From an uncultured delta proteobacterium (lineage in GTDB: Bacteria > Desulfobacterota > WTBG01 > CAIYCZ01 > CAIRTM01), in assembly GCA_963804955.1 (NCBI GenBank), contig CAWDSQ010000030.1:224001-288000 (forward strand): 64,000 nt of DNA, written 5' to 3'. Below, in pieces: positions 24,337 through 50,622 of this stretch. Numbering within the stretch: the first letter of the stretch is position 1; each line of letters begins with the position of its first letter. The notes below the pieces were generated by a model. It made no database searches. It saw only the letters and a program-made list of their open reading frames with translations, and was not told the origin of the DNA. The translations under genes and the position numbers were made by a program.

Positions 24337-24474
24337 TTCTTCTATTTATAGCTGCTGGTTTTGTCATCCAAGGTCAAAAAGAAATTTTTTCTTTTTAGGT
24401 TCCCTTAAAGAGCTTTTCAAAACAAAACCCGCATGGTATGAATCAGACTAATTGTTTTTAAGAGAAATATTTTA

Positions 24475-26418: not shown

Positions 26419-26455
26419 GGTATGGGCTAAACGCATTTGCCAGTGAGGAGGGATT

Positions 26456-26944: not shown

Positions 26945-26989
26945 CCATATTTAATTAAAAATATTTTAGGCTAACTGGTTGGGTACACA

Positions 26990-27328
26990 ATGGATACACT
27001 AATAAAAAAACTCGGACAATTCGCAAAAGAACGTGACTGGGAGCAATTTCACTCACCAAAAAATCTTTCTATGGCTTTGGCGGTTGAAGTAGCCGAACTG
27101 TTAGAACATTTTCAGTGGCTGACTGAAGAACAAAGCCGCAAGCTTGATCCAAAAACCTTAGCAAAGGTTAAAGAAGAAATTGGGGATACTCAGATTTACC
27201 TTGCACGCTTAGCAGATCAGCTCGGTATTGACCCTCTTGACGCAGCGAATGAAAAACTTATAAAAAATGCAGTTAAGTATCCCATCGAAAAGGCTAAGGG
27301 ATCGGCCAAAAAGTACACAGAGTTATAA
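26990..27328 (+). CDS. MazG-like nucleotide pyrophosphohydrolase
   Basis: ERDWEQFHSPKNL, EVAELLE, EEIGD. Confidence 0.92.
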   Translation: MDTLIKKLGQFAKERDWEQFHSPKNLSMALAVEVAELLEHFQWLTEEQSRKLDPKTLAKVKEEIGDTQIYLARLADQLGIDPLDAANEKLIKNAVKYPIEKAKGSAKKYTEL

Positions 27329-27331
27329 AGT

Positions 27332-29692
27332 ATGCTGATTTACCAAGATACCACTGCGCAGTTTATAAAAGATATCAGGGAAAATATAATTACTGATATC
27401 ATGTCGCGTAATTTTATTCAGCGACTAGGCAGAAAACCTGTGCGTAGCGAATCTGCTTCTTGGCAAAATTCTTTGCCGCGGGTAAGGGATTTAATTGAAA
27501 TTGCAGAGCTTTATGATAACAAAATAGCCTTGGAATATGAAGTTCCGTACATTCAAAACAGGATAGATTGTTTGCTTTTTGGTAAAGGTGAAAACGATTC
27601 TGATAATATCGTTCTACTAGAACTAAAACAATGGACCTCTGTGCAGGCATTAGAAATTGATGGTAATTTTGTTGAAACTTATACTGGTGGCAGGGATAGA
27701 GTTGTTGCTCATCCTTCGCAACAGGTCCAAGGCTATAGCAACTATCTAAAAGGTTTCATTGAAGGCTTTGATGCAAAACCGCCACTGGTGCTTTTTAGCT
27801 GCTCTTATTGTCATAATTACAAAAAAAATGCTGCTGATGGTCTGTTTAACCCAATTTATCAAAAGCTTATTGAGGAATACCCTGTATACACAAAAAATGA
27901 CACAATGTTATTAGCGAATAAAATAAAAGAATTACTCAAGGAAGGAAAAGGATTTGAAATCTTTAACCGTTTTATGCAAAGCCCTGTTCGCCCTACGAAG
28001 AAGCTGCTTGAAAATGTTGCAAGGGTAATACGGAATGAGGTGGTTTTTTCGTTATTAAATGAGCAACTAGTCGCTAAAAATCTTATATGGTCAAAAGTTG
28101 CTAGGGCTGACAAAACTCAACATAAATCTGTAATTATTGTCCATGGCGGCCCTGGCACAGGTAAATCTGTTATTGCAATAAACATTTTGGCAGAAGCAGC
28201 CCAACGCCGTAAAAAAGTTTTTTATGGATGCAAGTCAAAGCCTTTTACCGAAGGTCTTAAATCACTTGTTGGCAGAGATGGTGCTTTGCTTTTTTCAAAT
28301 TTATATCGTTTTATTCCAAGCAGGGTTCAAGAAAATGAATTGGATTTGCTGCTCATAGATGAGGCCCACAGGATTGAAAAAAACAGTAACCATCAACACA
28401 CAAGGCGCACAGATAGAACTGATATGCCACAAATTGATCAATTGATTAGATGCGCAAAAACATCGGTTTTCTTCATTGATGATAAGCAAAACGTAAGATG
28501 GAAAGAAATTGGCAATTCTCAACTAATAAAAGACACTGCAATACAGTACAAATGCGAATTTGAAGAAGTTACATTAGAAACCCAATACAGATGTATGGGC
28601 TCTAATGATTATTTGCTTTGGATTGAATCTGTTTTGGGTTATGCAAGCGAAAAACGCATTTTGAGAAAAGATGAACTGTTCGACTTTAAAATTTTTGATA
28701 ATCCCCAAGCCTTATATAATGCGCTTGCAATAAAAGAAGCTGAAAAACATAATTCAGCACGATTAGTTGCCGGATTTTGTTGGCCATGGAGCCAAAATTT
28801 AGCAGTCGATGGGTCACTAGTGAACGATGTAAAAATTGGCGATTTTGCCATGCCATGGGAAACACATGATAAGATAACTCGGCCACCCAGAGGCTTTGTT
28901 AAATGGTTTGAATGGGCTTATAAACCCGAAGGATTTAAACAGGTTGGATGCATTTATACTGCACAGGGTTTTGAATTCGACTATATTGGTGTCATTGTTG
29001 GAGATGACCTGTCCTGTGACATTAAAAACAACTGTTTAGTGGGCAATATTGCCGCAACAAAAGATCCAGTATTGCGACAGCATGGTGAAGATTTTGACCG
29101 ATATGTGAAAAACATTTATAGAACTTTACTCACTAGAGGGATGAAAGGTTGTTTTGTCTATTTTACAAACGGGAATACAAGAAAATTTTTTGAACAGTAT
29201 CTGGAATCCAAAGCTGAAGTAATTGAACTAATTCCATATGTCAATTCTCTGCCATTAGTTGAACTCAGAGCTGCAGCCGATTCAGGATATGCAACTACTG
29301 ATGGTGTTTTTACAGACGACTCTAGTATTAAATTAATTTCCGTTGAAGGTGGTCCTTTTCAAAAGGATCGCTTCGTTGTAAGAGCTGACGGCGATTCAAT
29401 GGAACCACATATCCCTGACGGAAGTTTGTGCCTTTTTCGAAAAGACCTAGGGGGCAGCAGAAATGGTAAAATTGTTCTTTGCCGAATAGAAGGATTTGCG
29501 GGTGAATTTCCTTTTGCGGTTATAAAACGCTACCAAAGTGCCCGATCCCCTTCGGATGAAAGCTTAGGGATGGCTCAAAAAATCGTTTTGTCATCATTAA
29601 ATACGAATCATGAACCTATTGTCCTGTCTGATGGCGATGAGTTTTCAATTTTAGGAATTTTTGAACGAGTTATCTCTGAAGAAAAAGCTTAA
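27332..29692 (+). CDS. DUF2075 (Schlafen group 3-like) nuclease-helicase with C-terminal S24 peptidase-like domain
   Basis: LEY..RID..ELKQW (PD-(D/E)XK-like), GGPGTGKS, IDEAHR, YTAQGFEFDY, LLTRG; C-terminal GDSMEP...KR. Confidence 0.85.
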   Translation: MLIYQDTTAQFIKDIRENIITDIMSRNFIQRLGRKPVRSESASWQNSLPRVRDLIEIAELYDNKIALEYEVPYIQNRIDCLLFGKGENDSDNIVLLELKQWTSVQALEIDGNFVETYTGGRDRVVAHPSQQVQGYSNYLKGFIEGFDAKPPLVLFSCSYCHNYKKNAADGLFNPIYQKLIEEYPVYTKNDTMLLANKIKELLKEGKGFEIFNRFMQSPVRPTKKLLENVARVIRNEVVFSLLNEQLVAKNLIWSKVARADKTQHKSVIIVHGGPGTGKSVIAINILAEAAQRRKKVFYGCKSKPFTEGLKSLVGRDGALLFSNLYRFIPSRVQENELDLLLIDEAHRIEKNSNHQHTRRTDRTDMPQIDQLIRCAKTSVFFIDDKQNVRWKEIGNSQLIKDTAIQYKCEFEEVTLETQYRCMGSNDYLLWIESVLGYASEKRILRKDELFDFKIFDNPQALYNALAIKEAEKHNSARLVAGFCWPWSQNLAVDGSLVNDVKIGDFAMPWETHDKITRPPRGFVKWFEWAYKPEGFKQVGCIYTAQGFEFDYIGVIVGDDLSCDIKNNCLVGNIAATKDPVLRQHGEDFDRYVKNIYRTLLTRGMKGCFVYFTNGNTRKFFEQYLESKAEVIELIPYVNSLPLVELRAAADSGYATTDGVFTDDSSIKLISVEGGPFQKDRFVVRADGDSMEPHIPDGSLCLFRKDLGGSRNGKIVLCRIEGFAGEFPFAVIKRYQSARSPSDESLGMAQKIVLSSLNTNHEPIVLSDGDEFSILGIFERVISEEKA

Positions 29693-29781
29693 GAAGAAAA
29701 TGGGGGAAAAGATTTTTACTGCCCCGCAACTCTGCTGTAACCGTACTTTAATCTGAAAGCCCGGCACCAGACAAGTCATGT

Positions 29782-30363
29782 ATGGTGAAAATGGACAGAA
29801 ATGCATTTGAAGTCCTATGCGAAGCGCGATACTGCTGGCGGCTGGGATGCACGACCTGCGGCACCTGGCCGCTCAAAGCTGATCTGTATAGGCTGATTTT
29901 AGGCTTTCATCCGGATGATCCTGATTGGCAATGCGAGTTCCGCTGCGTTGAGACGGAAACAGGCACAGCGCCGTATCTTGAAATCGTTGTGCAGCCAGAA
30001 AGGGGAAAATTCCCCAGCCGCTATCCCGAGTATCCGCCCCCACGGGAATTATCCGAAACAGATCAGTTAAAGCTTCAAACTGTGGTGAAAGATGTGCGCA
30101 TTGCCCGTCTCAATATGGCCGAGCCCCGGTGGCTGGGATATTTGGGCGTTGCCCTGAAATGGTGCGAAGAGGTTGAACAGCACAACAAAATTCTTACCCA
30201 TGCCCTTGTGCCGCAATTTGCAGAACTTCTGGCATCCGGCCAACCCCATGCCCGGCAAAGTTTCCAGCATATTATAGATAGTCATCTTACCTGGCAGAAT
30301 CTGGAAGAAGTTGAGCGCGCCTTACTGTGGGGCAACATTATAAAACGATCGGCGCCTTGGTAA
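29782..30363 (+). CDS. Hypothetical protein with N-terminal Cys cluster
   Basis: 193-aa ORF, CEARYCWRLGCTTCG. Confidence 0.65.
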   Translation: MVKMDRNAFEVLCEARYCWRLGCTTCGTWPLKADLYRLILGFHPDDPDWQCEFRCVETETGTAPYLEIVVQPERGKFPSRYPEYPPPRELSETDQLKLQTVVKDVRIARLNMAEPRWLGYLGVALKWCEEVEQHNKILTHALVPQFAELLASGQPHARQSFQHIIDSHLTWQNLEEVERALLWGNIIKRSAPW

Positions 30364-30496
30364 AAAAATAATCACTTGGCAAGCCGGCAGCCCTTCACCA
30401 AGCCCAGCTTTCCCTCAAAACAATCCCCGAATACAGCCACCCGTATTTCTGGGAGCCATTTGAGATGATCGGGGACTGGAGGTAAACTTTTAACCT

Positions 30497-30525
30497 TGAC
30501 TCTGTCTTTAGCCGGTGCTACTTTT
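30497..30525 (+). promoter_or_regulatory. Putative sigma70 promoter of the phd-vapC operon
   Basis: TTGACT-17 bp-TACTTT with extended TG. Confidence 0.5.
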
Positions 30526-30551
30526 TTTAAACAGCCTAAGGAGCATATTAT

Positions 30552-30788
30552 ATGGAAACAATTCCAATCACAAAATTCAAGGCATCCTGTTTGTCAGCAC
30601 TTCAAAAAGTTAATAAAACCGGTCAGCCCCTTCTGATTACAAAAAGCGGGCAACCGGTAGCCATGGTGACTACGCCACCCGGCAATGCTAACACAGGTGA
30701 AGCGTTTGGATGTATGAAAAACGCAATAAAAATACAGGGTGATATTCTCAGCCCCCTTTCTAAAAAAGGCTGGGAAGCCCTGCGCTGA
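30552..30788 (+). CDS. Phd/YefM family antitoxin
   Basis: ITKFKASCL...ITKSGQPVAMV; overlaps the PIN gene start. Confidence 0.88.
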   Translation: METIPITKFKASCLSALQKVNKTGQPLLITKSGQPVAMVTTPPGNANTGEAFGCMKNAIKIQGDILSPLSKKGWEALR

Positions 30789-31183
30789 TGAGAATTCTTA
30801 TAGATACACATATCTGGCTATGGAATCTTGCGGGCAGCCCGGAGCTCCCCTCATATTTTAAAGACCTTCTTGCAAACAGCAGGCATGAAATATGGCTTTC
30901 CCCAATTACCTTATGGGAGGTACTGGTGCTGGCAGAGAAGGGGAGAATCCGTCTTAATAATACTCCCGACGCCTTTATAGAAAAGGCCCTGCAATTGTGG
31001 CCGGTGAAAGAGGCCCCGCTGGATTTTAGAATTGCCCGAAAAAGCCAGGAAATTAAACTGCCACATCAAGACCCCGCTGACCGTTTCATTGCTGCAACAG
31101 CCATAGTCTATGATCTCCGGCTGATGACAGTCGATAAACGGCTAATCGCAGCTTCAGAAGTGCCGACAATCGCCAAAAAATAA
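30788..31183 (+). CDS. vapC: VapC/PIN toxin
   Basis: ILIDTHIWLW, SPITLWE, HQDPADR, TVD. Confidence 0.9.
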   Translation: MRILIDTHIWLWNLAGSPELPSYFKDLLANSRHEIWLSPITLWEVLVLAEKGRIRLNNTPDAFIEKALQLWPVKEAPLDFRIARKSQEIKLPHQDPADRFIAATAIVYDLRLMTVDKRLIAASEVPTIAKK

Positions 31184-31559
31184 AACTTTGAAAAAGCCCA
31201 CGCCCTGCGCCAGTCTCAACTCGCGAGAAAAAAAGACGGTTCTATTTAACGTCATTTTTTCGGCTTGTCATCAAATTCAAAAAATGATTTTGCAGGTCGT
31301 TCGCCACAGTGGAGGCCCGGCATGTCTCTGCCGGATAAATGCCGACCAAGCACCGACTAAGCACCGACTAAGCGACAAGTCAAAAAACAGAAACGGTTTC
31401 ATTTATTAACATCAAGAGACTCATTGTTGAGGGGAACATAGAAAAGCAATAGAAAGGCAGAATGAGGAAACAGTCACCTGTTGTTTTGAAATTTATTGAC
31501 TGAAATTGAATAGCAGGCTATATTTATGTAAGAAATTCTTACTTATCGGGAGGTCAATA

Positions 31560-31829
31560 ATGAGTGCAGTCGAAATTACCAGCCTTTCCTCAAAGGGGCA
31601 GATTGTTATCCCAAGTTCCATTCGCAATGATCTGAAAATATCGGCGGGAGATAAATTTGCTATTATCTCCGATGGCGAAAATATTCTTCTTCGTCCGGTA
31701 GAGAAGCCGAAAATTGATAAATTTCGAGCACTCATTGCGGCGAGCAGAAAATATGCACGAGAGAATGGTCTGCAAAAGGAAGATGTCTTGAAAGCGGTAA
31801 AAAAGATTCGTCGTGAAAATCGTTCTTGA
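31560..31829 (+). CDS. AbrB/MazE/SpoVT family antitoxin
   Basis: SSKGQIVIPSSIR; SD ggagg. Confidence 0.88.
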   Translation: MSAVEITSLSSKGQIVIPSSIRNDLKISAGDKFAIISDGENILLRPVEKPKIDKFRALIAASRKYARENGLQKEDVLKAVKKIRRENRS

Positions 31830-31950
31830 TACAAATGTGTTGGTTTCGGGAATCTTTTGGGGCGGTATCCCTTTCAGGATATTGGAACATTGGATATCTG
31901 ATGACATAGAAAAATTATTGCAACGCCTGATATACTGAATGAATATGTGC
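31813..31950 (+). pseudogene. Truncated PIN-domain toxin
   Basis: GTG-KIVLDTNVLVSGIFWGG, then a frameshift (ATPDILNEY) and an abrupt end. Confidence 0.8.
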
Positions 31951-32012
31951 GGGGGCGGAAACAATAGAAACAATAAGGGACAGCCACCGATTAAATTCCC
32001 ATTCGTTCGAAT

Positions 32013-32258
32013 TTAACGAGTCGGTTCGGCATGCAGCTTAAGCCCCAGGGCTTGAAGCACTTTCATGACCGTATCGAAACGGGGTTTTGCTCCTGATGCG
32101 AAAGCTTTATAAAGACTCTCTCGCCCCAAGCCGGAATCACGGGCAATTGTGGCCATTCCTCGCGCCTTGGCCACATCACCAACTGCCGCAAGCAGCAAAT
32201 CAAGATCATTTTTTTCCATAACGGCGGAAAGATACTCCGCTATGGTTTCCTCATTATC
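32013..32258 (-). pseudogene. N-terminally truncated addiction-module antidote (HigA-like Xre HTH)
   Basis: DNEETIAEYL...VAKARGM..IA..SGLGRESLYK...PRFDT; the start and the partner toxin are missing. Confidence 0.75.
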
Positions 32259-32486
32259 AGGAAAAATAGGAGATAACCACTAATTAAATTGTCAAGTGGC
32301 TGTTTATTTTATTGAAATTGCGGTAAGAAATCAAAGTGCCAGGTCGCGTTAGACTTTTGATGCTGATTAAATGGACCCGGCCTGCATTATTTTCATTTAT
32401 AGATTTCTTAGGCTGACTGTTACGTGCCATAAAGAAGGGGGTGAAGAGTACGCTCAAGCCCCCATGTAATCTCTTATAGGCAAATT

Positions 32487-32553
32487 CCCCGAAGCTCGCT
32501 TCGATTGGAAATAAAAACTAAAATCCCGAGTTACCCCGCAGTTTGTTGCGGGG
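32487..32553. mobile_element. Hairpins resembling IS200/IS605-family or MITE ends (remnant)
   Basis: cgaagctcgcttcg and ccccgcagtttgttgcgggg hairpins; no transposase nearby. Confidence 0.35.
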
Positions 32554-32999
32554 AGGTTTATTAGCAATAAAATGATAAAATTTAATAAAAATTAAATTTT
32601 TTTACTACGGCTCTTTTTTATTTTTGTCATAGAAAAAAATATTTTTTTTTCGTGGTTTTATGGCGGATTAAGATTTTTGATGTTATAATAAAAATAAATG
32701 GCTTAAATTTTATTTAATCCAGAAAACTTAGTTTTTCTAAGTAAAAAAGCAGTTCAAATAGGGATAAAATAAAGGGGGAAAAGCCCCTATTGATTCACTA
32801 GCGGTGAATTCACACAAAATCAGGTTGTAAATAAATCACCTTGTTTTTTTTGACATTTTTAAAGATTAAAAAAACAAAAGAATATTTTTTTAAACATTGA
32901 TTTTATTACGAAACATGTTATATATTTTTTAGGTATGAAATAATAAGGTTGCTAATCTGCAGCTTGGGCAAAAAAATAAAGCGAAAGGAGATATCTTAC

Positions 33000-33194
33000 A
33001 TGAAAAAGGAAGCAAGTGATTCAATTATTATGACAGTCGATGAAGTTGCTGAGTATTTGAAGCTTTCAAAAATCACTGTCTACAAACTCACCCAGAAGGG
33101 AGAGATCCCTGGTTTCAGAATTGGAAGTTCATGGCGATATAACCGTCAGGTTATAGACGAGATTGCAAGAGTTGGCACCAAAAAGAGCGCATAG
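33000..33194 (+). CDS. Excisionase-like HTH_17 DNA-binding protein
   Basis: MTVDEVAEYLKLSKITVYKL...IPGFRIGSSWR; SD aaggag. Confidence 0.88.
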   Translation: MKKEASDSIIMTVDEVAEYLKLSKITVYKLTQKGEIPGFRIGSSWRYNRQVIDEIARVGTKKSA

Positions 33195-33261
33195 TTTTGT
33201 AGCGCCCGCCATACTTTGTAACGCAAGAGATATAACGGACATAAAGGGGTTTGATTCCCTC

Positions 33262-33291
33262 AAAAGGTCTCCAGCATGCTGGAGACCTTTT
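33262..33291. terminator. Perfect 30-bp palindrome, likely bidirectional terminator
   Basis: aaaaggtctccagcatgctggagacctttt equals its own reverse complement. Confidence 0.7.
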
Positions 33292-33429
33292 CTTGTTGTC
33301 TGGATTATAATTGCCTTGAAATTACAGCGCGAATAAGCTAATGTAAGAACCTTATTTTCTGAATGGTTCTGTTTAGATTAATGTGTCATGAAGCCACGAA
33401 GGGTTGTGCACGAAAAGTAAGGAGGATTA

Positions 33430-33523: not shown

Positions 33524-34117
33524 GTGTTGCATGATAAAAGAGATTTGCTGCTTCATGTTTGTTGCGCTCCGTGCGCAACAGCTGTTTTTGAAGCATTGGT
33601 ACAGGACTTTACACTAACAGCTTTTTTCTACAATCCCAATATCCAGCCTGATACGGAATATCAAAAGCGCCTTGAGCATGTACAAACGCTTTGCAGGATG
33701 CAGGATATACCTCTCGTCATACCAGAGTACGACGATGGCAGCTGGGCGCGGCATACGGCCGGCTTGGAACATGAAACTGAAGGCGGCAGTCGCTGCAGTA
33801 TCTGTTTTCAGGTTCGGCTTGCACGTACTGTGTTTGCAGCTCAAACCATGGGTATTGGAACAGTTGCGACAACGCTATCGGTGAGCCCTCATAAAAATGC
33901 CCGTCTTATCAACGATATCGGCTCGGATGCGGCGCAGGGCACGGGCATCATGTTTTTAGATCGTGATTTCAAGAAAAATGATGGATACCGGAAAAGCTGT
34001 GAACTGAGTAGAAAATATGGCCTGTACCGGCAGAAGTATTGCGGCTGCCTGTACAGCCTGCCAATGAAGAGCGAAGATGGAACACCAGTGAGAGCAAAAA
34101 AGCTTTTGAATTTATAG
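33524..34117 (+). CDS. queH: Epoxyqueuosine reductase QueH
   Basis: LLHVCCAPC, YNPNI, RC..C, YRQKYCGC. Confidence 0.92.
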   Translation: MLHDKRDLLLHVCCAPCATAVFEALVQDFTLTAFFYNPNIQPDTEYQKRLEHVQTLCRMQDIPLVIPEYDDGSWARHTAGLEHETEGGSRCSICFQVRLARTVFAAQTMGIGTVATTLSVSPHKNARLINDIGSDAAQGTGIMFLDRDFKKNDGYRKSCELSRKYGLYRQKYCGCLYSLPMKSEDGTPVRAKKLLNL

Positions 34118-34898
34118 ACATCCTGCCGCGATCTGAAAAACCACGCAGGCAGGGGCTTGTGATGATGCTTGATAAGGGCCTCGGGCTTCATCTTGCAAAG
34201 GACATGGCTGCTGCGGCTCAGTTTATCGATATTGTGAAGCTCGGATGGGCAACCCCCCGCCTTTTTAACGAAGCATTCATCCAGGAAAAGGTGCAAGCTC
34301 TACCGCGATCACGGTATTATGGTCGGCAATGGCGGAACTCTTCTGGAAATAGCCTATCCAGCAGGGCAAAGTCGAACAGTTTCTCGTGTATTGCAGAAAA
34401 CTGGGTCTTGAGCTCATTGAGGTTTCAAACGGCGTCGTGCCCATCAATCCCGGTGAAAAAACAGGTATCATACGCAAAGCCTGCTCCATGGGGTTTTCTG
34501 TCATATCCGAGATCGGTAAAAAAGAACCGGCCGAAGACAGAAGGCTGTCGCTGCCTGACCGCGTCACCGAGGCGAAGCGCGATCTTGATGCCGGAGCGCA
34601 GTACGTGATTATCGAGGCGCGTGAAGGCGGCCGGAATCTCGGGGTTTATGACGAGTCCGGCGGCCTTAAGGAAGATATGGCGCGCTATCTGGCTGAAGAA
34701 ATCGGCATTGAAAATATCATGTTTGAGGCGCCCGAAAAAAGCCAGCAGGCGGAACTGATCCTGCTTTTCGGCAGAGATGTAAACCTCGGCAATATCCGAC
34801 CTGAGGATGTGACATCGCTTGAAACGCTGCGTCGAGGCATACGAGGTGATACGTTTGGCAAAATACCGCATAGCGACCGGCCCTGGCCCGTTCCCTGA
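34077..34898 (+). CDS. comA: Phosphosulfolactate synthase (frameshifted; start approximate)
   Basis: KPR..GLVMMLDKG, KLGWAT, IEARE, FEAP..QQ, VNLGNI, LETLRRGIRGDTFG. Confidence 0.88.
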
Positions 34899-35546
34899 TC
34901 TGCAGGATGAAGAAGTTATAGTCCTCATAGATACGCTGCGTGCCTCAAGCACCATAGTAACAGCTCTCTCCCTTGGCATTGAAACCGTCATCCCCGTTCT
35001 TGATGATCTGCAGGCCTTTTCTCTCAAAAACGACGAAACGGTCATTTCAGGCGAAGCCGGCGGCGTGAAGATTCCCGGGCTATGACATCGGCAATTCGCC
35101 CGTTGAGCTTATTAAAACCTGCCGGCAGTCTTCTTTTTCGACACTTGTTATCAAAACCTCAAATCTTATTCCGCTGCTTGTATCGCTGCCCCGTGCCGTG
35201 GTATGCTCGACCCTGAACCTTGCGGCTGTTGCACGCTTTCTTGCCGGCCGCGAAGCCGTTATTATAGCCTCAGGCGGCAGACGCGGCATTGCAGAGGATT
35301 TGGGCACAGCGCTTGCCCTGGGCAGATATGCTCATGGGCGTGCAATTCGATGCCGGCGGCATAAAGTCTTTTATACAGGAGTCAAATGCGGCGCAGCATC
35401 TGTGCAGCATCGGCTATGCGCAGGATGTTGAATTCATCGCGCGCGTGAATGTGTTTGATATCGTTCCGGTGTATGACGGAAAGGTGATCAGACAAGCAGG
35501 CCTGTACACGCAACTGCGTGCAGGGCCGCCGCAGAGAGCTTACCCT
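34855..35546 (+). CDS. comB: 2-phosphosulfolactate phosphatase (frameshifted; end approximate)
   Basis: IDTLRASSTIVTAL, GE.GG, GNSP, ED, GYAQDVEF..R.N.FDIVP. Confidence 0.82.
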
Positions 35547-36043
35547 ATGATTGATACGCGCATTGTTCACTGCATGCAGGCGGCAGCTGTTGATATGGTT
35601 GTGAGCCTGCCCTGCAATATGCTGTCGGGCATTCTTGACGAAATCGACAGGCTGCCGATCAAGCGCATTCCCGTCTGCCGCGAGGAGGAGGGTGTGGGCA
35701 TTGCGGCAGGTGCGGCGCTGGCAGGCAAAAGGCCCGTGCTGCTGATGCAGAATTCAGGCCTTGGCAATTGCGTGAACGCGCTGGCCTCCCTCACCGGCCT
35801 GTACCGGCTGCCGCTGTTTCTGCTGATGAGCCACCGGGGCGGACCCGGGCGAGCAGATAGCAGCCCAGATCCCCATGGGGCAGGCGGCCCCCGGGCTGCT
35901 TGAAGCGCTTGCTATTCCCTATACGAGCAGTCACAACACCAGCCGATCTGGATACCCTTGCATCCTTCATGCGACAGACATATGCCGACAGCGCTGTCGG
36001 CGCGGCTTTTTTATCGCGGGAGCTGTGGCATGCGGCGAAGTGA
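35547..36043 (+). CDS. comD: Sulfopyruvate decarboxylase alpha subunit (frameshifted)
   Basis: SLPC, REEEGVGIAAGA, MQNSGLGN, SHRG..GEQIAAQIPMG. Confidence 0.85.
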
Positions 36044-36583
36044 AATTATAGAGGAAATTGCCCGGCGCGATTGGCTGATTGTGGCAAATATCGGCTATCC
36101 GGCCCGGGAGCTGTTTGCCGCTGCTGACCGGCCGGGCAATTTTTATATGCTCGGCTCCATGGGGCTTGCAAGCTCCATTGGCCTGGGGCTTGCCGTCAGC
36201 CAGCCCGAGCGGGTCTGCGTTATCGACGGCGACGGATCAGTGCTTATGAATCTCGGCTCCCTTGCAACCATAGCCCACCATGCCCCTGATAATTTCTGCC
36301 TGGTCATTGTAGACAACAAGGTCTATGGCAGCACGGGAGGTCAGCCGACCTATACCGGCGGCAAGACCGATCTTGCAGCCCTTGCCCGGGCTGCGGGAAA
36401 TAAGCAGGTAAGCCGTGTCAGCACGAAAGCCCGAGCTGGCACGGGCTCTTGATGAACATGAAGGGCATGCCGCGATTATTATAGCCGATACGGATCCGGG
36501 CAATGAAGACGTGCCCGTCATTCCACTATCGCCAGTTGCAATCAAAGAGCGCTTTATGGCGCGTCTTCATGAAAGGAAAATAA
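36030..36583 (+). CDS. comE: Sulfopyruvate decarboxylase beta subunit, TPP-binding (frameshifted; end approximate)
   Basis: ANIGYPAREL, NFYMLGSMGLASSIGLG, DGDGS, DN..YGSTGGQ, IKERF. Confidence 0.85.
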
Positions 36584-36588
36584 AATCC

Positions 36589-37511
36589 ATGCGCTACCTG
36601 TTCGGTCCTGTCCCGTCCCGAAGGCTCGGGTATTCCCTGGGTGTTGATATCATACCGCATAAGGTCTGCACGCTTGACTGCGTGTACTGTCAGCTCGGGC
36701 CGACAACACTGAAGACCATTGAACGCAGGGCCTATGTCGAGCCCGGTCCCGTTCTTGCCGAACTTGATGAAATTCTTTCACAAAAACTGCAGATAGACTG
36801 CATCACGTTTTCCGGCTCGGGCGAGCCGACGCTTAATACCTGCCTGGGGGATATAATCGCCGGCATAAAAAGCCGCTGCTCCATACCGGTAACGGTGCTC
36901 ACCAACGGGACGCTGCTGCATCTGCCCGAGGTCCGCGCCGGTCTTTTGCAGGCCGATATCGTTTGCCCGTCATTTGATGCGGCCACACCGCAGGCTTTCA
37001 GCAGGATAAACCGTCCGCATGAGAGCCTTATCGCATTGAACATGATGATTGCAGGGTCTGAAAGCATTCCGGCGGGAGTTTTCCGGGAAAATCTATCTTG
37101 AAGTGATGCTTGCCCGCGGAGTCAATGACTCCCCGCAGGAGCTTGAAGCGTTTGCGAAAGTTCTGCCCGAATTCGGAGCTGATCGGATTCAGATTAATAC
37201 CGTGATCCGGCCCGCTGCTGCAGATGGTGTCTGGGCCGTAAGCCCGGCAACGCTTGCAGCAGGCCCGCACCCTTTTCGGTCCGAATGCCGAAATAATCGG
37301 CGGCTTTCTGAAGGAGCGCTCGCTTCATGAGCAGGAGAATATCGCAGACCGCATAGTGCAGCTTGTCGGGCGGCATCCGAGCACCGCACAGGATATCTGC
37401 GCCGCCCTTGGTCTCACCGCTGATCTGGCACATGAATTTTTGAACCAGCTTATCTCGCAGGGCCGCATTTCCAAAACTATACATGGCGGCAGCACGTTTT
37501 ACACGTCGTGA
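36589..37511 (+). CDS. Radical SAM protein, COG0731-like (frameshifted)
   Basis: FGPVPSRRLGYSLG, CTLDCVYC, GSGEPTL, TNG. Confidence 0.85.
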
Positions 37512-37658
37512 GCTGTTTTTTCCAAAAGCCGTGGGGTGGATCTCCCATGAATGATAGTAGCGCTGCAGCAAAGCCATTGGTTTTAGAGCGTGTACCTAAA
37601 TCCGGTAACCGAAAATCAGAAAACAGGGGAGTGCGTTAGCAGTATGACAGCATTTCTT

Positions 37659-37724
37659 GTCATTCCCGCTTGACGGGAATCCCTTTTGGTGTGCAGAAAA
37701 AGGATTCCGGACAAGCGGAATGAC
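37659..37724. repeat. Palindromic miniature element (GTCATTCC...GGAATGAC type)
   Basis: gtcattcccgcttgacgggaatcc...ggattccggacaagcggaatgac. Confidence 0.7.
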
Positions 37725-37818
37725 CAGGGTCTGTGTTGCTCGTCAACACAGGAATACGGGCTGCAGTATTTTGTTAAATGCTCTCAGGAAGCGGAGAATA
37801 TGGATTTTCAGAAAACGA

Positions 37819-38529
37819 TTACGCCTTTGGGAGATAGAATCGGGGGTTGCGGGGTTTGTTGTCGCAGCGGATCTGAAAATGCAGATAGGTCTGGGGCTTG
37901 CTGCTGGGTGAGCCTCCGACCTCGGCGATTTTTTGTCCCTTGGTAACGGTCTGTCCCTGCGCGACAAGATTTTTCTGATTATTGGCATATACCGTGGCGT
38001 AATTTTCTTTATGCTCGATGATGATGGTGTTGCCGTAGCCTTCCAGAACACCTGAAAACGCCACTGTTCCTTCCTTGGCAGCCTTGACAGGGGCGCCTTC
38101 AGGCGCTTTTATATTAATGCCATCATGTTTGATGCCGCCGTAAATGCCGTATTCCTCAATGATCTTGCCGCGCACGGGCCAGATAAAAAGGCCCGGCCTG
38201 CTGATGATTTTTTCGGGCTGGGTTTTGTCGGTTGCGGCTTTGGTCTCTGAAAGGCTCCTGGGTTTGTCGGCGCCGGGGATGAAAATTTTATCGCCGGCCT
38301 TAATCAGAGATGTGTCTTTTATATTGTTGATCTCGGCCACATCCTGCAGGCTCACGCCATAGAATTTGCAGATTTTCCAAAGGCTTTCTCTTTTCTGCAC
38401 GGTATGATAGGCGCCGGGCATTGACTGTTTTTTGTCTGGAAGAATCGGGGCAGAGGGGCGAAACAGTGCGCAGGCCTGCAGCAGTAATGCCACACTAAAA
38501 ATAAGCAGCAGTGTTTTTGAAAGTCTCAT
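37819..38529 (-). CDS. nlpD: LysM/M23 lipoprotein (NlpD-like)
   Basis: Lipobox LLLQAC, LysM domain, WPVRG, HDGIN, LHFQIR. Confidence 0.85.
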   Translation of the reverse strand: MRLSKTLLLIFSVALLLQACALFRPSAPILPDKKQSMPGAYHTVQKRESLWKICKFYGVSLQDVAEINNIKDTSLIKAGDKIFIPGADKPRSLSETKAATDKTQPEKIISRPGLFIWPVRGKIIEEYGIYGGIKHDGINIKAPEGAPVKAAKEGTVAFSGVLEGYGNTIIIEHKENYATVYANNQKNLVAQGQTVTKGQKIAEVGGSPSSKPQTYLHFQIRCDNKPRNPRFYLPKA

Positions 38530-39000
38530 TGCTGTATTAACCATATGCAGGGCTTTTTCAACCGCCTCCCGGGCAGTATGGGCCTTGATGATTTCAGGGC
38601 CGATGTCCCATGTCTGAAGCCCTATGACGGGCTTGCCAATCTTCAGCGCCAGGGCGATTTCTGAAAGCGTGCCGTATGATCCGTCAACGGCGATTACCGC
38701 CATAGCCGCGCGAACCACCAGAATATTGCGCGCATGGCTCAGCCCTGTCGGTATGGCGATGTCGATATACGGGTTGGCATCGCCGAACTCAAAACCGGGC
38801 AGCAGCCCCACAGTCAGCCCGCCGGCCTCACGTGCGCCTTTTGCCGCCATTTCCATCACACCGCCAAGCCCTCCGCAGAACAGCACGGCATTGTTCAGGG
38901 CAATATGGCGTCCCACATCATAGGCAAGGCGTGCAGCCTCTTTGGAACACTCTCCAGCGCCTATGACGCCGATATGGACCCTGTCTTTTATATCGGCCAT
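38530..39000 (-). CDS. TIGR00725/LOG-like Rossmann protein (reads in frame into nlpD here)
   Basis: CGGLGGVM, ARN, GTLSEIA. Confidence 0.85.
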
Positions 39001-39728
39001 GATCGTAAAATCTCAAGTGCTTTGTAGTTTGTAAGATCCGTCTGAATCGGTGTTATTGATGCGCAGGCCTCAGAAACCGCCTCGGCATCGGAGCCGGGAA
39101 TTGCATGGTGCCGGTCGCCATCGCCGCCGATCCAGTAATAGATTTCTCCGCGCGGGTTCATGCGTTTTTCGATAGCTCCCTCATAAATGCTTTTGCCCTG
39201 ATGCGTAAAGCGGTATCCCGCTATCGCGCCTCCCTGCGTGTCGGGGATGTTTATGTTCAGAAAGGTATCCGGCGGCAGGCCATGGCGCAGCACTGCGGCT
39301 GCAACCCGGGCTGCAAACTGAGCAGCCGGGCCGAAATTAAAGTTTGAGCGGCAGGCAAGAGATACCGCTATGGCCGGTATGCCCCAGATAGTGGCTTCAA
39401 AGGCTGCGGCTACAGTACCGGAATAGGGTATATCATCGGCCATGTTGGCGCCCTTGTTGATGCCCGACACGACCAGTCCCGGCTTTTCCGGCAGCAGGCT
39501 GTTCACGGCAAGGTTGATGCAGTCCGACGGGGTGCCGTCAACCATGATGCGGCGTTCGGCAAGAGCTGTCGCCCTGAGGGGCCGGTGGAGCGTGAGCGCC
39601 CTTCCCACGGCGCTCATCCCCTGCGCGGGCGCGACTGTCCAAATCCGGCCGAGGCCCATCAGTGCTTCCTCAAGGGCATGAAGGCCCTCGGACTGAATGC
39701 CGTCGTCGTTTGATAGAAGAATAAGCAT
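38988..39728 (-). CDS. surE: 5'/3'-nucleotidase SurE
   Basis: LLSNDDG, GTPSDC, SGIN.G.N, YSGTV. Confidence 0.96.
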   Translation of the reverse strand: MLILLSNDDGIQSEGLHALEEALMGLGRIWTVAPAQGMSAVGRALTLHRPLRATALAERRIMVDGTPSDCINLAVNSLLPEKPGLVVSGINKGANMADDIPYSGTVAAAFEATIWGIPAIAVSLACRSNFNFGPAAQFAARVAAAVLRHGLPPDTFLNINIPDTQGGAIAGYRFTHQGKSIYEGAIEKRMNPRGEIYYWIGGDGDRHHAIPGSDAEAVSEACASITPIQTDLTNYKALEILRSWPI

Positions 39729-39733
39729 GATAA

Positions 39734-39762
39734 AAAATACCCAAAAGGGGTTCGGGTGTCAA
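39734..39762 (-). promoter_or_regulatory. Putative sigma70 promoter of surE
   Basis: TTGACA-17 bp-TATTTT ending 5 nt before the ATG. Confidence 0.5.
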
Positions 39763-39936
39763 TTAAAACAGTTGCCGGCCTGATGTCAAAATACATTTTT
39801 ATTGACACAATAACATATATTTTCATATAGTTGGAGTTCTATTCGCAGCCAAATCCATATGAAATCTTCGGCGGATGCTGATCGCGAGCCGTTGCAATCA
39901 TAAATACCACACCAGAAACCAAGGAAGGATAGAGGC

Positions 39937-42031
39937 ATGAAAAAAAACGAGTCAAAGCAGATCAGAAATATTGCCATTACCGGCCACGGCAAATCCGGGA
40001 AAACATCCCTGGCCGAAGCGCTTCTCTTCAGCGGCAAGTCGACGGACCGGCTCTGCAAGGTCGACAATGGCGAATCAGTGCTTGACTTCGAGCAGGAGGA
40101 AAAAGACCGCCACATGACCATCATGAGCTCCTTCCACCATGTATCATGGAAGAAGGCGACAATTAATATTATCGACACACCCGGCGACGCGAATTTCGTT
40201 GCCGACACCTATAACAGCCTGCAGGTCGTTGACGGCGCCGTCCTGGTTGTGGATGCTTCATCGGGCGTGCAGCTCATTACCGAGAAGATCTGGCAGCGCC
40301 TGCGCGAGAACAAAGTCCCCTGCCATCATCGTCATCAATAAGCTGGACCGCGAGAATACCGATTTTTACAGGGTTTTTGAAAATATAAAAAACATGCTCA
40401 AGGCAAAGGTCACGCCGCTGCAGATACCCATCGGCAGTCAGGCGAACTTTAAGGGCTTTGTCGATCTGGTGAAACTGAAGGGCTATGCCTTCGCCGCTGA
40501 TGATTCCGGCAACACCTCCGACTGTGACATTCCCGCTGATATTAAAGAACAAGCCGATGAGCTGCGCATGCAGCTCATCGAAGATGTGGCAGAGTCAAGC
40601 GAGGAGCTCATGGAGAAATATCTCGACGGCCAGGAGCTTTCAGATGATGAAATAGCCGCCGGCATCAGGGCCGGCGTTCAGTCAGGCAGCCTCGTCGGTG
40701 TGCTGTGCGCATCGGGGATCAAGAATTTCGGCGCCAAACAGCTTATGGATTTTGTTGTGCAGTTTTTTCCGTCACCGCTTGAGCGGCCTGCTATTCAGGC
40801 ACTAGATGCCAGGTCGGGCGAGCTGAAAGAAGTAATCCCATCCGAGGACGGGCCGCTGTTTGCCTATGTATTCAAGACGATTGCCGACCCCTATGCCGGT
40901 AAGCTCACCATTTTTCGGGTTTTCTCAGGGTCGCTTGCAGCTGATGCAACAGTGTATAATGCCAGGAAAAGGGTCAAAGAAAAGATCGGCTCCATTCTGC
41001 AGCTTGAAGGCAAGGCGCAGAAGCCCATTGACATGGCCGTAGCCGGCGATATCGTGGCGCTGGCAAAATTGCGCGAAACAACCACGGGCGACACCTTCGG
41101 GGTGGAGGGCAAGGAGCTGAACTTCAAGAGTATCGAACATGTCAGGCCGGTTACTTCCTACGCTATCGTCCCGAAGAGCCGCGGCGACGAAGATAAGATG
41201 GCAGGCGCTTTCGCCCGACTGATGGAAGAGGACCCAACGCTGGTCATGAAGCGCGATGAGCAGACCTTCGAGTTCATTCTTTCGGGCGTCGGCCAGGCCC
41301 ACCTTGATGTGACCGTTGCGAAAATGAAACGCAAATTCGGCGTCGAGATCGACATGCAGCTGCCGCGCATTCCCTATCAGGAAACCATCAAGGGAAAAAC
41401 CAGGGTCCAGGGCAAGCATAAAAAACAGACCGGCGGCCGCGGGCAGTTCGCCGACACCTGGATTCAGATCGAGCCCAATGCCCGTGGCGGCGGATTCGAG
41501 TTTGTTGATAAGATCGTTGGCGGCGCCATTCCGCGCAACTATATACCCGCTGTTGAGAAGGGTATCGTCAATCAGATGAAAAAGGGCATCATCGCAGGCT
41601 ATCCGATCGTCGACGTGCGGGTTCTACTCGACGACGGCGGCTACCATGATGTCGATTCGTCAGATATGGCTTTCCAGATAGCAGGGTCCAAGGGCTTTAA
41701 AAAGGGTTTTGTTGAATGCAGCCCGATTCTGCTCGAGCCCATTATGACGGTTGAGGTGACTGTGCCGGAGGACATGACCGGCGACATCATGGGCGACATG
41801 AACAGCCGTCGCGGCCGCGTTCTCGGCATGGAGCAGAGCGTGGGCGGGCAGCTCATCAAGGCCATGGTGCCCCTGTCGGAGATGCAGCGCTATGCGGTTG
41901 AACTCATATCCATGACCAGCGGCAGGGGCATGTTTACCATGGAGTTCGACCACTATGAAGAAGTTCCGCAGCATTTAACGCAGAAGATTATAGCCGCCTC
42001 CAAGCACGGAGAGGAAGAAGACGACGAATAA
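39937..42031 (+). CDS. fusA: Elongation factor G paralog, EF-G2-like (frameshift ~40320)
   Basis: GHGKSGKT, DTPG, NKLD, KKQTGGRGQF, YHDVDSS, LLEPIM. Confidence 0.92.
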
Positions 42032-42039
42032 TTATTGAG

Positions 42040-42531
42040 GTGCCTGCAGCCATGGATGATACCGAATTCCCCAAAGAGCTGATTGAGGAAACCGGAGAGG
42101 CAAAGCCCGAAAAGATTTTCGAGTCTTTGTATCAGCGGCTTCTGAATATGGCGGTCAATGAAAAGATCCGGCTGGCGACACTCGGCAATAAGGAGGCGCG
42201 CAACCTGCTGATCAAGGATCCCAATCGCCTCGTGATACATTCCGTTATCAGCAGTCCCAAGCTGACCGAGGATGAGGTAATCAGTTTTGCGGGCAATAAG
42301 AACCTGTCGAAAGATGTGGCTAACCTCATCGCCAGCAAGAAGGAATTTTTGAAAAGCTATGCTGTGAAGGTGGCGCTGGTGAATAATCCCAAAACAGCCG
42401 TTCCTACGGCCATCAAGCTCATGCCCCATCTCATGGAAAAGGATGTGCGCAACGTGGCAAAGAGCAGAGGTATTTCCAGTGTTGTGGTCGCAGCCGCTCG
42501 AAGGATTATTACGCAACGGGCAGCCAAGTGA
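42040..42531 (+). CDS. Hypothetical helical-repeat protein
   Basis: EKIRLATLGNKEARNLLIKDPNR, ALVNNPKT. Confidence 0.75.
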   Translation: MPAAMDDTEFPKELIEETGEAKPEKIFESLYQRLLNMAVNEKIRLATLGNKEARNLLIKDPNRLVIHSVISSPKLTEDEVISFAGNKNLSKDVANLIASKKEFLKSYAVKVALVNNPKTAVPTAIKLMPHLMEKDVRNVAKSRGISSVVVAAARRIITQRAAK

Positions 42532-42595
42532 TGTGAAATCTTAAGCGCCGGCAGACAACGATTATCTGCCGGCGCTCCTAGTGTGCGGGTGGTGT

Positions 42596-43084
42596 ATGCG
42601 TGCTGCAGTGCTTACTATCAGCGACAAGGGTTCCATCGGGCAGCGGCAGGACACAAGCGGCCCTGCGGTGGCAGCGGTTTTGCAAACCATCGGCGCCGTT
42701 GTTGAGAAATATGAGATCGTGCCTGATGAGGTTGATGTGATCGCCGGCAAACTCATTGAGTATGCCGATATGCTCGGCCTCGATCTGGTCGTTACCACTG
42801 GCGGCACAGGCGTGGCGCCACGCGACCTGACCCCGGAGGCAACCCGCACAGTCATCGACCGCGATGTGCCGGGCATGGCCGAGGCCATGCGCATGGAAAG
42901 CTTCAAAAAAACCCCCCACGCGCTTATCTCCCGGGCGATTGTCGGCATCCGCAAACAGACCCTCATTATCAACCTGCCAGGAAGCCCCAGAGGCGCCACC
43001 GAAAACCTCCAGTTTATACTGAAAGCCATTCCCCATGCCGTTGAGAAGATCAAGGGCGACCCGTCCGAGTGCGCAGTTCAATAA
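42596..43084 (+). CDS. mog: Molybdopterin adenylyltransferase MogA/MoaB
   Basis: TISDKG, TTGGTG..PRDLTPEA, NLPGSP. Confidence 0.93.
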   Translation: MRAAVLTISDKGSIGQRQDTSGPAVAAVLQTIGAVVEKYEIVPDEVDVIAGKLIEYADMLGLDLVVTTGGTGVAPRDLTPEATRTVIDRDVPGMAEAMRMESFKKTPHALISRAIVGIRKQTLIINLPGSPRGATENLQFILKAIPHAVEKIKGDPSECAVQ

Positions 43085-43393
43085 TAACAATGAAGGCACA
43101 AAAAGTGCCCGGGGATTTTTTTAAAGGATTGTATGCAGGCAGTGGATGTTTTTTGTCGTATTGCTTTTTATAAAGTCGTCCCGGGTTTCGCGTGTGCCGA
43201 GGCACAGCAATAAGAGTTTTTTGCCTGAAATACTTTAATTTTTAAATAGTTCGTTTGTTCGGTTTTATATCATTGGCGCACTAATGATTTGACAGAAAAG
43301 GACTTTTTTATTATCATCATTAGAACTTTCTAACTATAGCCAGAGACAGGTGTGCTCCAGTAAAAAGTTAAATATTTGTCAGAGGAACAGGCG

Positions 43394-43880
43394 ATGAATC
43401 ACACAAGTCACATCATCCGGTTTGCAGTCGTGCTGGTAGCAGTGATAGCTGGTTTTTTTACTCTCAGGAGCTTTTTGGTGCCTGACAGCTTCGGCGTACA
43501 GGGAGATTATAAATACGGCTATCATCGGGGGGCCTCGGATGCTGAGCAGGCCGCGCTGCCTGCCCTGTATACGGGCAGCAAAAAATGCGCCCAGTGTCAT
43601 GCTGAAGCAACTGCGGAGTGGCAGGCTGGCAAACATGCAGGAGTAGCATGCGAAACCTGTCATGGCAACTGGCAGGCCCATAATAATAATACCAAAGACA
43701 AAGCAGGCAAAGACAGTTCGGCAGAGGCCTGCATGCTGTGCCACGGAGAAGTTGATGCGCGGCCGGCTGATTTCCCGCAAATTGCCGGATATGAAAAAGC
43801 ATGTGCGAGGACAAGGGCGGGCCTATGAAAAGGGCATGCTCTGCGTGGCCTGCCACAGCGCCCACAGTCCGAAGCAGTAA
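43394..43880 (+). CDS. Membrane-anchored tetraheme cytochrome c (frameshift ~43797)
   Basis: CAQCH, CETCH, CMLCH, CVACH. Confidence 0.85.
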
Positions 43881-43974
43881 AAGGGCTTATAGCGTGGTGA
43901 GTGCTGGTTTCGGAATCAACGGATTACCTGATAAAAACGATTCTTAAAAAACGAATCAAGCATAAAAAAAGGGA

Positions 43975-45900: not shown

Positions 45901-45951
45901 GTGGTGCCGATGGTGCGGTCAATTAATCATAGTTTGAGGAGATGACGTGAC

Positions 45952-47899: not shown

Positions 47900-47906
47900 G
47901 CCGACC

Positions 47907-50607: not shown

Positions 50608-50622
50608 CGCACGTAGGACTTT

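Follow-up and report, generated by a model that had tools for sequence, protein, structure and literature searches.

Introduction

Coenzyme M (CoM) is seen as a hallmark of the metabolism of methane and short alkanes, and otherwise of a few alkene-oxidising bacteria. In the aerobic degradation of sulfolactate of the Roseovarius type (SlcD/ComDE/Xsc), a bacterial sulfopyruvate decarboxylase forms sulfoacetaldehyde, and this route, which is not known to include ComA or ComB, ends with Xsc. Bacillus subtilis carries YitD and YitC, homologues of ComA and ComB that serve the formation of spore sulfolactate, and is not known to have ComDE in this route. The XcbB-XcbC-XcbD-XcbE route of Xanthobacter autotrophicus Py2 has a ComA-type start, after which, in the part of the description available to us, phosphate is eliminated by an aspartase/fumarase-type enzyme, with neither sulfopyruvate nor ComDE involved (PMC9457059). 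A complete archaeal-like comABCDE set was described for all 17 metagenome-assembled genomes (MAGs) of the Desulfobacterota class 'Candidatus Anaeropigmentia', along with 14 AnnoTree bacterial genomes, and the available text of that preprint leaves the function open (bioRxiv 10.1101/2021.03.22.436540). Here we analysed a stretch of 64,000 nucleotides (the window, C30:224001-288000) from a 4.26-Mb, 36-contig MAG of a bacterium of the Thermodesulfobacteriota, in which the genes comA, comB, comD and comE lie between queH and a radical SAM gene. A prediction made earlier from the sequence alone had proposed that these genes form a methanogen-type route to sulfoacetaldehyde. In the literature searched, no publication treating this cluster in this class was found.

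Results

The analysis makes it likely that queH-comA-comB-comD-comE and the radical SAM gene form one operon, which is vertically inherited in a class of the Thermodesulfobacteriota and carries an archaeal-type route to sulfoacetaldehyde, the frameshifts in it being artefacts. The six genes are packed on the same strand into positions 33524-37511 (+), from the start of queH at 33524 to the end of the open reading frame (ORF) of the radical SAM gene at 37511. Only queH is intact, and each of the other five genes is split over two to four reading frames. In a genome of the same genus in which these genes are intact (G001; genomes, contigs, loci and families are given by our designations G, C, L and f, the genome analysed here being G000) the genes overlap or sit 5 nt apart, and the gap between comE and the radical SAM gene is 5 nt. 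Two terminator-like hairpins on the forward strand bracket the unit. One, with a 13-bp stem, belongs to the upstream unit and sets the 5' limit of the transcription unit (33262-33291), and the other lies 3' of the radical SAM gene (37654-37680). The genes, their order and their coordinates as given in the original prediction were borne out by Pfam and NCBIfam scores and by tblastn, and its identification of queH, ComA, ComB, ComD, ComE and a radical SAM protein was correct.

Pfam and NCBIfam models were scored on the ORF fragments of the window itself and, in addition, on the intact orthologues of G001. The comA gene, for (2R)-phospho-3-sulfolactate synthase (34039-34898, +), is read in three frames and probably has its true start near 34078. 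Its fragments matched PF02679 with 52.5 and 179 bits in two frames and TIGR03849 with 48.7 and 184.1 bits, and the orthologue of G001, which is 90-98% identical to the window pieces, scored 288.9 on TIGR03849 against a cut-off of 280. Among solved structures in the PDB, ComA matched that of Methanocaldococcus jannaschii (1QWG) with 231.6 bits, as compared to 148.3 bits for 1U83. The comB gene, for a predicted 2-phosphosulfolactate phosphatase (34834-35550, +), overlaps the end of comA and is present in four pieces, which gave 52.7 bits on PF04029 for the N-terminal part and 22.5 bits for the C-terminal end. ComB of G001 scored 118.4 bits on the same model (cut-off 26.4), and the PDB entry 2YYV matched ComB with 75.9 bits.

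The genes for the alpha and beta subunits of sulfopyruvate decarboxylase, comD (35547-36043, +, three pieces) and comE (35982-36580, the end being approximate, +, two pieces), were scored in the same way against the models for sulfopyruvate and for phosphonopyruvate decarboxylase (Ppd, TIGR03297). The ComD fragment of the window reached 123.6 on TIGR03845 and 74.3 on the Ppd model, and ComD of G001 173.9 (cut-off 147.95) and only 83, respectively. For ComE the window fragment gave 183 on TIGR03846 and 131.3 on the Ppd model, and G001 gave 217.5 (cut-off 221.5) and 142. Both ComD and ComE thus missed the Ppd cut-off of 312.5. The class sample consisted of 41 genomes, this genome included, and in 11 of these ComE exceeded the TIGR03846 cut-off.

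It is highly improbable that ComD/E is a phosphonopyruvate or other 2-oxoacid decarboxylase and that the cluster makes no sulfoacetaldehyde, even though the one solved structure related to ComE in sequence is that of a putative Ppd beta subunit (9IZ3, 82.4 bits) and ComE of G001 falls 4 bits under its own cut-off. TIGR03845 and TIGR03846 beat the Ppd model by 91 and 75 bits, and ComA and ComB share the operon with ComD/E in every locus. The true fused Ppd proteins of two relatives, G009 and G002, scored 489.7 and 410.5 on TIGR03297 and are encoded beside PEP (phosphoenolpyruvate) mutase; in Pfam scans of the window and of the loci of the relatives, PEP mutase was not found in the com cluster. 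These two relatives have genuine phosphonate clusters with PEP mutase and fused Ppd (L185 in G009:C21 and L186 in G002:C41), and in L185 the next gene encodes an iron-containing alcohol dehydrogenase.

A maximum-likelihood tree of the ComE beta domain was built from 47 rows, of which 15 were bacterial, 30 archaeal and 2 Ppd. The bacterial rows were initially 23, from which five duplicate loci and three loci that failed the length/no-stop filter (L011, L025 and L029) were removed. The archaeal rows were drawn from 81 genomes of the phylum to which a Methanocellaceae MAG belongs, a sample without class I methanogens, and a search for archaeal ComE in two Methanocellales MAGs gave no matches. The Ppd pair separated from ComE at 100/100. 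The 15 bacterial ComE proteins joined six split-type archaeal ComE proteins at 92/94, apart from the 24 fused archaeal ComDE proteins. Two of the 30 archaeal loci have further com genes alongside, with the order comA-comB-comDE in L179 and comB beside comDE in L180. The sulfopyruvate decarboxylase identity therefore survived the check on whether ComDE clusters with Ppd, and ComD/E are predicted to be sulfopyruvate-type decarboxylases, distinct from phosphonopyruvate decarboxylases.

With ComE defined as a TIGR03846 match at E ≤ 1e-20, it was detected in 28 of the 41 class genomes: 15/16 in family f1, 4/4 in f2, 1/8 in f3, 7/10 in f4, and 0/1 in each of f5 and f6. The genes queH-comA-comB-comD-comE were colinear in all ten fetched loci, which represent the family, order and class levels. 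In a sample of the whole phylum, ComA was found in 35 of 401 genomes, in 25 of them over the cut-off. Thirty ComA loci were returned from this sample. All 13 from families f1, f2 and f4 have the arrangement queH-comA-comB(-comD-comE), and the remaining 17, from other families of the phylum, have ComA alone. Gene identity, order and conservation, as well as the distinction from Ppd, are established by these comparisons.

Six of the lone-ComA loci were scanned and showed an unrelated context of GntR/FCD regulators, TctC, transporters and proteins of 324-336 amino acids without Pfam matches, and the lone homologues were accordingly discarded as evidence on the operon. These homologues (L125-L138, L151, L152, L154) scored 328-342 bits on the archaeal ComA model, above the ComA of the present lineage. 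Their genomes have up to six ComA-like matches each, with comB, comD and comE absent nearby. In them the ComA fold may serve another purpose, possibly a catabolic one.

The broken reading frames were compared with the intact G001 proteins as tblastn queries (ComA 272, ComB 237, ComD 164, ComE 199 and radical SAM 305 amino acids). In the window the matches covered residues 5-272 of ComA, 2-237 of ComB, 1-164 of ComD, 1-195 of ComE and 1-303 of the radical SAM protein, and where the pieces are true continuations they are 68-98% identical to G001, with 97.8% for the C-terminal part of ComA. At the breaks the frame steps 1>2>3>1, meaning that every break is a +1 insertion and none a deletion. DNA alignment to G001 placed the extra bases, about 11 in total, in comA (near 34297 and 34359), comB (near 35077, 35324 and 35510), comD (near 35843 and 35925), comE (near 36433) and the radical SAM gene (near 37021-37058 and 37257), with one more near 36566 at the very end of comE that joins it in frame to the radical SAM gene. 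The indels suspected in the original prediction are real features of the assembly.

Further evidence points to the assembly as their origin. The contigs of four public runs from four studies, 88-99% alike to this stretch, had 12 listed one-letter omissions, 11 of which coincide with these insertion sites, and none of the inserted bases was found in G001 or in the contigs of the four runs. Essential genes of the window are split likewise, namely rpoB (10-1068 and 1065-2177) and secY (17514-18383 and 18319-18792), as is the EF-G gene (39937-42031), and an extra base at 38534 has fused the SLOG-cluster4 and LysM-M23 peptidase genes, which are separate in G001, into one ORF of 393 amino acids (37819-39000). 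G003, another few-contig assembly of the genus, has its own breaks in comB and in the radical SAM gene. No in-frame stops were seen within the com and radical SAM fragments. Because rpoB, secY and EF-G are split too, and G001 and the four-run contigs are without the insertions, the frameshifts in the com and radical SAM genes are likely to be assembly errors, and on this sequence comparison we took the genes as intact in the organism. The broken frames of this assembly should not be taken as a sign that the genes are decaying.

Decay was nonetheless weighed, as the insertions could be true frameshift mutations that have turned the com genes into real pseudogenes, with the pathway being lost in this strain. 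The insertions amount to about 3.5 per kb at 34.1-37.3 kb as compared to about 0.5 per kb at 37.8-50.9 kb, i.e. they are about seven times denser (34087-37257 versus 37816-50885), and this density leaves some room for real decay. The inserted bases are carried by no other sequence examined, and the com-radical SAM stretch borders a low-GC island. The contigs compared are moreover those of relatives and not of the source sample, so that the extra bases are shown only as peculiar to this assembly; in a screen of public runs for the source reads, the highest share of sampled words in any run was 0.19, and the runs listed for the stretch included none of RNA. However, a decaying locus fits poorly with breaks that are +1 insertions throughout, with fragments free of stops and excess substitutions (nucleotide identity to G001 is 89.2% in the com-radical SAM stretch and 87.7% in the next 13 kb), with essential rpoB and secY being broken in the same way, with the splits in G003, and with a completeness of just 87% for 36 contigs. 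We therefore give decay little likelihood.

The first gene of the operon, queH for epoxyqueuosine reductase QueH (33524-34117, +), is intact with 197 amino acids and scored 217.2 bits on PF02677. It lies directly upstream of comA in all ten fetched relatives and in all 13 class loci of the phylum sample. The gene is present in a single copy in this genome and occurs in 36 of the 41 class genomes, among them all 21 of high quality and 10 of the 13 without ComE. QueG was not found over the cut-off in the genome (best score 115.8, cut-off 200), and QueH is thus probably the epoxyqueuosine reductase of the cell. A role of QueH as a pathway enzyme or as a specialised second copy was rejected on account of the single copy and the ComE-lacking relatives that have it. 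By this distribution queH reads as a housekeeping gene of tRNA queuosine synthesis, a bystander behind which the com cassette sits.

The last gene (36589-37511, +, three pieces) encodes a radical SAM protein of an uncharacterised family of about 305 amino acids, with an invariant N-terminal FGPVPSRRLG, the cysteines C27-x3-C31-x2-C34 within a CTLDCVYC motif that is invariant in the alignment, and a C-terminal domain of about 80 amino acids. PF04055 was matched with 40.1 bits in the window and 40-70 bits overall. No NCBIfam family was matched over its cut-off, the best being MoaA or W-maturase models at 27-52 bits with cut-offs of 130-380, and a close solved structure was not found in the PDB (best MoaA, 22.8 bits). 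Matches in the ESM Atlas were to unnamed 'Radical SAM protein family' clusters only.

The original prediction had put this gene forward as a candidate for a downstream step, with sulfoacetaldehyde or some later intermediate as the substrate. The position would suit such a role: in 8 of the 10 fetched relatives and at three further loci the gene comes directly after comE, on the same strand, and with the short gap seen in G001. A tree of 48 rows placed the com-linked copies in a single orthologue group of f1 and f2 (Shimodaira-Hasegawa-like approximate likelihood ratio test, SH-aLRT, 93), and a second paralogue, in G000 at C16:105530-106438 and kept too in G001, G002 and G005, would permit specialisation; this paralogue groups with Planctomycetota and not with the com-linked copies. 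The distribution of the family points the other way. A scan across phyla with one genome per species gave at least 589 relatives, and the neighbours of the best 80 were analysed. These 80 are 40-68% identical and come from Aminicenantes, Clostridia, WOR-3, Nitrospirota, Bacteroidales, Planctomycetes, Calditrichaeota and Methanocellales, with relatives at 40-50% identity in many phyla, and com genes stand beside the radical SAM gene in only three of the 80 loci, all three from close relatives. Neighbours elsewhere are mixed, with DUF6125 at 11 of 79 loci and each of MinD-ferredoxin, ARMT1-like and metallo-beta-lactamase proteins at nine; as a candidate conserved partner in other phyla, none was common to more than 11 of the 79.

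Within the class, 38 of the 41 genomes have a member of the family, among them 11 of the 13 without ComE. The orthologue group of com-linked copies also includes two unlinked copies of genus g7, and the copies of f4, from genomes with a com cluster, form a separate unlinked clade, so that in f4 and g7 the com cluster is present and the radical SAM gene lies elsewhere. In several genomes the com-linked gene is the only copy, and it presumably keeps the general function of the family there. The linkage of the radical SAM gene to the com genes arose once in one order and was then lost again, which makes it look like a positional neighbour. A catalytic role in the com route is accordingly unlikely, and we regard the gene, on its distribution and phylogeny, as a probable bystander. 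A different radical SAM gene, PTO1314-family-like and with a DUF3463 match in the f4 copies, was seen upstream of queH in the f4 loci L025 and L029, which are without the downstream 305-amino-acid gene. In the f2 locus L027 the PTO1314-family-like gene occurs alongside the downstream gene.

The surroundings of the operon were also inspected. A low-GC stretch at about 24000-33400 (0.40 as compared to 0.54 around it) lies directly upstream of queH. It contains a TPR protein, a MazG-like gene, a Schlafen-type helicase fused to an S24 peptidase (27332-29692), a PIN toxin with a small upstream partner (30552-31183) and small helix-turn-helix genes, and looks like a defence or mobile island. An Rfam scan of the whole window gave no family at the gathering score. 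Two sub-threshold small RNA matches, to RF02353 (23.6 bits, gathering score 39) and to RF01473, overlap the upstream terminator hairpin, and a riboswitch or leader RNA upstream of queH was rejected, as these two weak matches were all that was seen.

Discussion

From the gene content we infer the enzyme activities, the stand-in for ComC and the fate of the product as follows. ComA would add sulfite to PEP, giving phosphosulfolactate, from which ComB would remove the phosphate to leave (R)-sulfolactate. The oxidation of sulfolactate to sulfopyruvate would be carried out by whichever malate dehydrogenase the cell has, of the Ldh_2 type here and of the Ldh_1 type in most relatives, and ComD/ComE would decarboxylate sulfopyruvate to sulfoacetaldehyde. 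De novo formation of sulfoacetaldehyde, as originally predicted, is the best fit to a cluster conserved in the class. That it serves CoM is a weaker part of that prediction and remains an inference, because ComF/MMP16 and MCR were not found.

The dehydrogenase step requires comment. The comC gene had been said to lie outside the window, and indeed the single Ldh_2 (ComC-type) gene of the genome is found 34 kb downstream of the operon, beyond the end of the window, at C30:294206-295165. An Ldh_1-type gene (Ldh_1_N) is present in 29 of the 41 class genomes, and four of the five genomes with Ldh_2, this one included, are without Ldh_1. At least one of the two types occurs in 26 of the 28 genomes with ComE, the two exceptions being 79% and 73% complete. 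The Ldh_2 gene would then be the malate dehydrogenase of this genus, with the oxidation of (R)-sulfolactate as a side activity of malate dehydrogenase. Both malate dehydrogenases of M. jannaschii have been characterised and, according to the available part of that work, MJ1425 was picked as ComC on its better kinetics with sulfolactate (PMC5695019).

Several results weigh against the pathway as proposed. The best NCBIfam equivalog of ComB scored 103.1 with a cut-off of 235, and all equivalogs stayed below their cut-offs, so that the scores show the predicted ComB as a member of the family, not as an equivalent. The search of this genome for comC, comF and CoM users that the original prediction had suggested gave a candidate only for comC, namely a single Ldh_2 gene below the cut-off: its best model is the L-sulfolactate dehydrogenase NF040650, at 192.9 with a cut-off of 500. 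Ldh_2 occurs in just 5 of the 41 class genomes and in 4 of the 28 with ComE, and the other 24 cluster-bearing genomes have no dedicated ComC, which indicates a lineage without one. MMP16/ComF was not found in the genome, the best TIGR03287 match being 118.8 with a cut-off of 363.95. This match is the single COG1900/HcyBio gene of the genome (PF01837, 513.4 bits), which is located beside cysK and has a ferredoxin-like match about 340 nt downstream (29.2 bits, to the ferredoxin portion of the MMP16 model). COG1900 is present in 34 of 41 class genomes with or without ComE, and is thus a homocysteine-pathway enzyme with nothing specific to the com route; as a pathway marker it was rejected. MCR alpha (TIGR03256) gave no matches in the genome, and known CoM-using enzymes were not found, MCR and CoM methyltransferase having been sought and alkene/epoxide CoM enzymes not searched. 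The DsrA protein was not found as a source of sulfite either. As the genome is 87% complete, these absences are provisional.

Two other candidates were examined and set aside. A URO-D-like gene gave a weak match (32-36 bits) as a CoM methyltransferase and has no corrinoid-protein neighbour, and for Xsc (sulfoacetaldehyde acetyltransferase) only an acetolactate-synthase-like match was obtained (328.3, cut-off 676.4). Upstream of the window, at a distance of about 46-55 kb, the same contig has a sulfur-assimilation neighbourhood. It comprises a small assimilatory-type sulfite/nitrite reductase-like gene, the only such gene seen, with an AprB-like ferredoxin before it (C30:167554-170808), and, about 8 kb away, the frameshifted cysK and the COG1900 gene (C30:175529-179608).

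For the fate of sulfoacetaldehyde we tentatively put first its reductive thiolation to CoM or a CoM-like thiol, via the single COG1900 (L-aspartate-semialdehyde sulfurtransferase-type, L-ASST) enzyme or with sulfide, although we hold this at somewhat less than an even chance. Synthesis of CoM would be possible. In the available part of a recent description, L-ASST may stand in where MMP16 has been lost, and sulfide and sulfoacetaldehyde react abiotically (PMC12068725).

Next among the fates we rank oxidation, for which the window holds a candidate gene. A SauS-like acylating aldehyde dehydrogenase of 465 amino acids (48923-50320, +) could convert sulfoacetaldehyde to sulfoacetyl-CoA and then sulfoacetate, and would so provide either a sink for sulfite, with recovery of ATP, or a sulfonated acyl building block. 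Its best NCBIfam model is NF047625 (SauS, 518.2 bits), followed by AdhE (402) and EutE-type (349) models, with just 64.1 bits on Pfam Aldedh. In this genus the gene shares the strand of comE, 12.4 kb further downstream, and it occurs in 21 of the 41 class genomes, with 19 of the 28 that have ComE and 2 of the 13 that do not. The score, however, is under the cut-off of 600 in all 41 genomes, and E. coli and L. lactis also match NF047625 at E ≤ 1e-60, which indicates that the model sees ordinary acetaldehyde dehydrogenases. The gene was not found in three cluster-bearing genomes that are each 98% complete (G012, G017 and G030), the co-occurrence with ComE is confounded by phylogeny, family f3 being without both, and outside this genus the gene and the com genes are on different contigs. 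Its conserved neighbour is an HdrD-like/cytochrome c complex and not the com genes, the order HdrD-like, multihaem cytochrome, aldehyde dehydrogenase recurring in 4 of 10 loci of relatives. Oxidation by this enzyme is thus doubtful, and thiolation remains the fate that we favour.

The SauS-like gene closes an Hmc/DsrMKJOP-like membrane redox module (43376-50320, +), in a genome where DsrA was not found. The module encodes a cytochrome c3-like protein, a DsrO/TtrB-like Fe-S protein, an NrfD-type membrane protein, a weak NarI-like protein, an HdrD-like CCG protein (best model TfrB, 167.7 bits) and a multihaem cytochrome, and then the SauS-like enzyme. A link of the com genes to the HdrD-like complex was rejected, since their proximity is seen in this genus only and, at the family-level loci, no such complex stands within 9 kb of comE.

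If CoM is formed, two uses could be envisaged. It might act as a low-molecular-weight thiol/disulfide carrier, for example for HdrD-like membrane complexes, one of which lies 6.5-11 kb downstream in the window, or it might be released to CoM-dependent methanogenic partners. A fuller scenario, which we consider improbable but worth stating, is that a non-methanogenic, non-sulfate-reducing class makes CoM or a close sulfonate thiol without ComC and ComF, by borrowing malate dehydrogenase and COG1900 (or ambient sulfide), and uses it as a carrier or releases it. Were this true, CoM could not serve as a biomarker specific to methanogens, and there would be a candidate substrate for some of the Hdr-like complexes of bacteria. 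More generally, a conserved operon without a known CoM user suggests an unrecognised use of CoM or a related thiol, or else a hitherto unknown sulfonate metabolite.

Compared to the described systems, the locus is most similar to the archaeal PEP-dependent CoM pathway of Methanocaldococcus and other class I methanogens, with which it shares ComA, a split ComD/ComE and a protein of the ComB family. ComA and ComD of G001 pass the equivalog cut-offs, the order comA-comB-comD-comE has a counterpart in the archaeal locus L179, and ComE joins the split-type archaeal proteins. It differs from the archaeal pathway in its bacterial host, in the general lack of a dedicated ComC, in that MMP16/ComF and MCR were not found, and in having queH first and, in one order, the radical SAM gene last.

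The bacterial routes resemble it in fewer steps. The Roseovarius-type route is catabolic, whereas ComA and ComB here point to synthesis, and Xsc was not found. With YitD/YitC of Bacillus the locus shares ComA and a ComB-family protein in a bacterium, and it differs in having ComDE and a ComA that is closer to the archaeal enzyme (231.6 versus 148.3 bits). With the Xcb route it has in common the ComA-type addition of sulfite to PEP, but the genes after comA are comB, comD and comE. As was originally predicted, and as far as the available description of the Xcb route goes, the ComA step is all that the two share (PMC9457059).

The 'Candidatus Anaeropigmentia' are a further close case, belonging to the same phylum and having archaeal-type com genes in a non-methanogenic anaerobe. 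The com cluster in a bacterium is therefore real but less new than the original prediction implied, since archaeal-like comABCDE in Desulfobacterota MAGs was already presented in the 2021 preprint (bioRxiv 10.1101/2021.03.22.436540). In its available text that set is stated to be a complete comABCDE, whereas comC is outside the conserved set here. Relative to the 14 genomes given there, the spread of the cluster (28 of 41 class genomes, with ComA in 35 of 401 genomes of the phylum) is wider, probably because a requirement for comC hides it. New over what is in print are the conserved set comA-comB-comD-comE without comC and comF, and the reading of queH and of the radical SAM gene as bystanders and of the frameshifts as artefacts. 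With comC outside the conserved set, screens that require comABCDE undercount this cluster.

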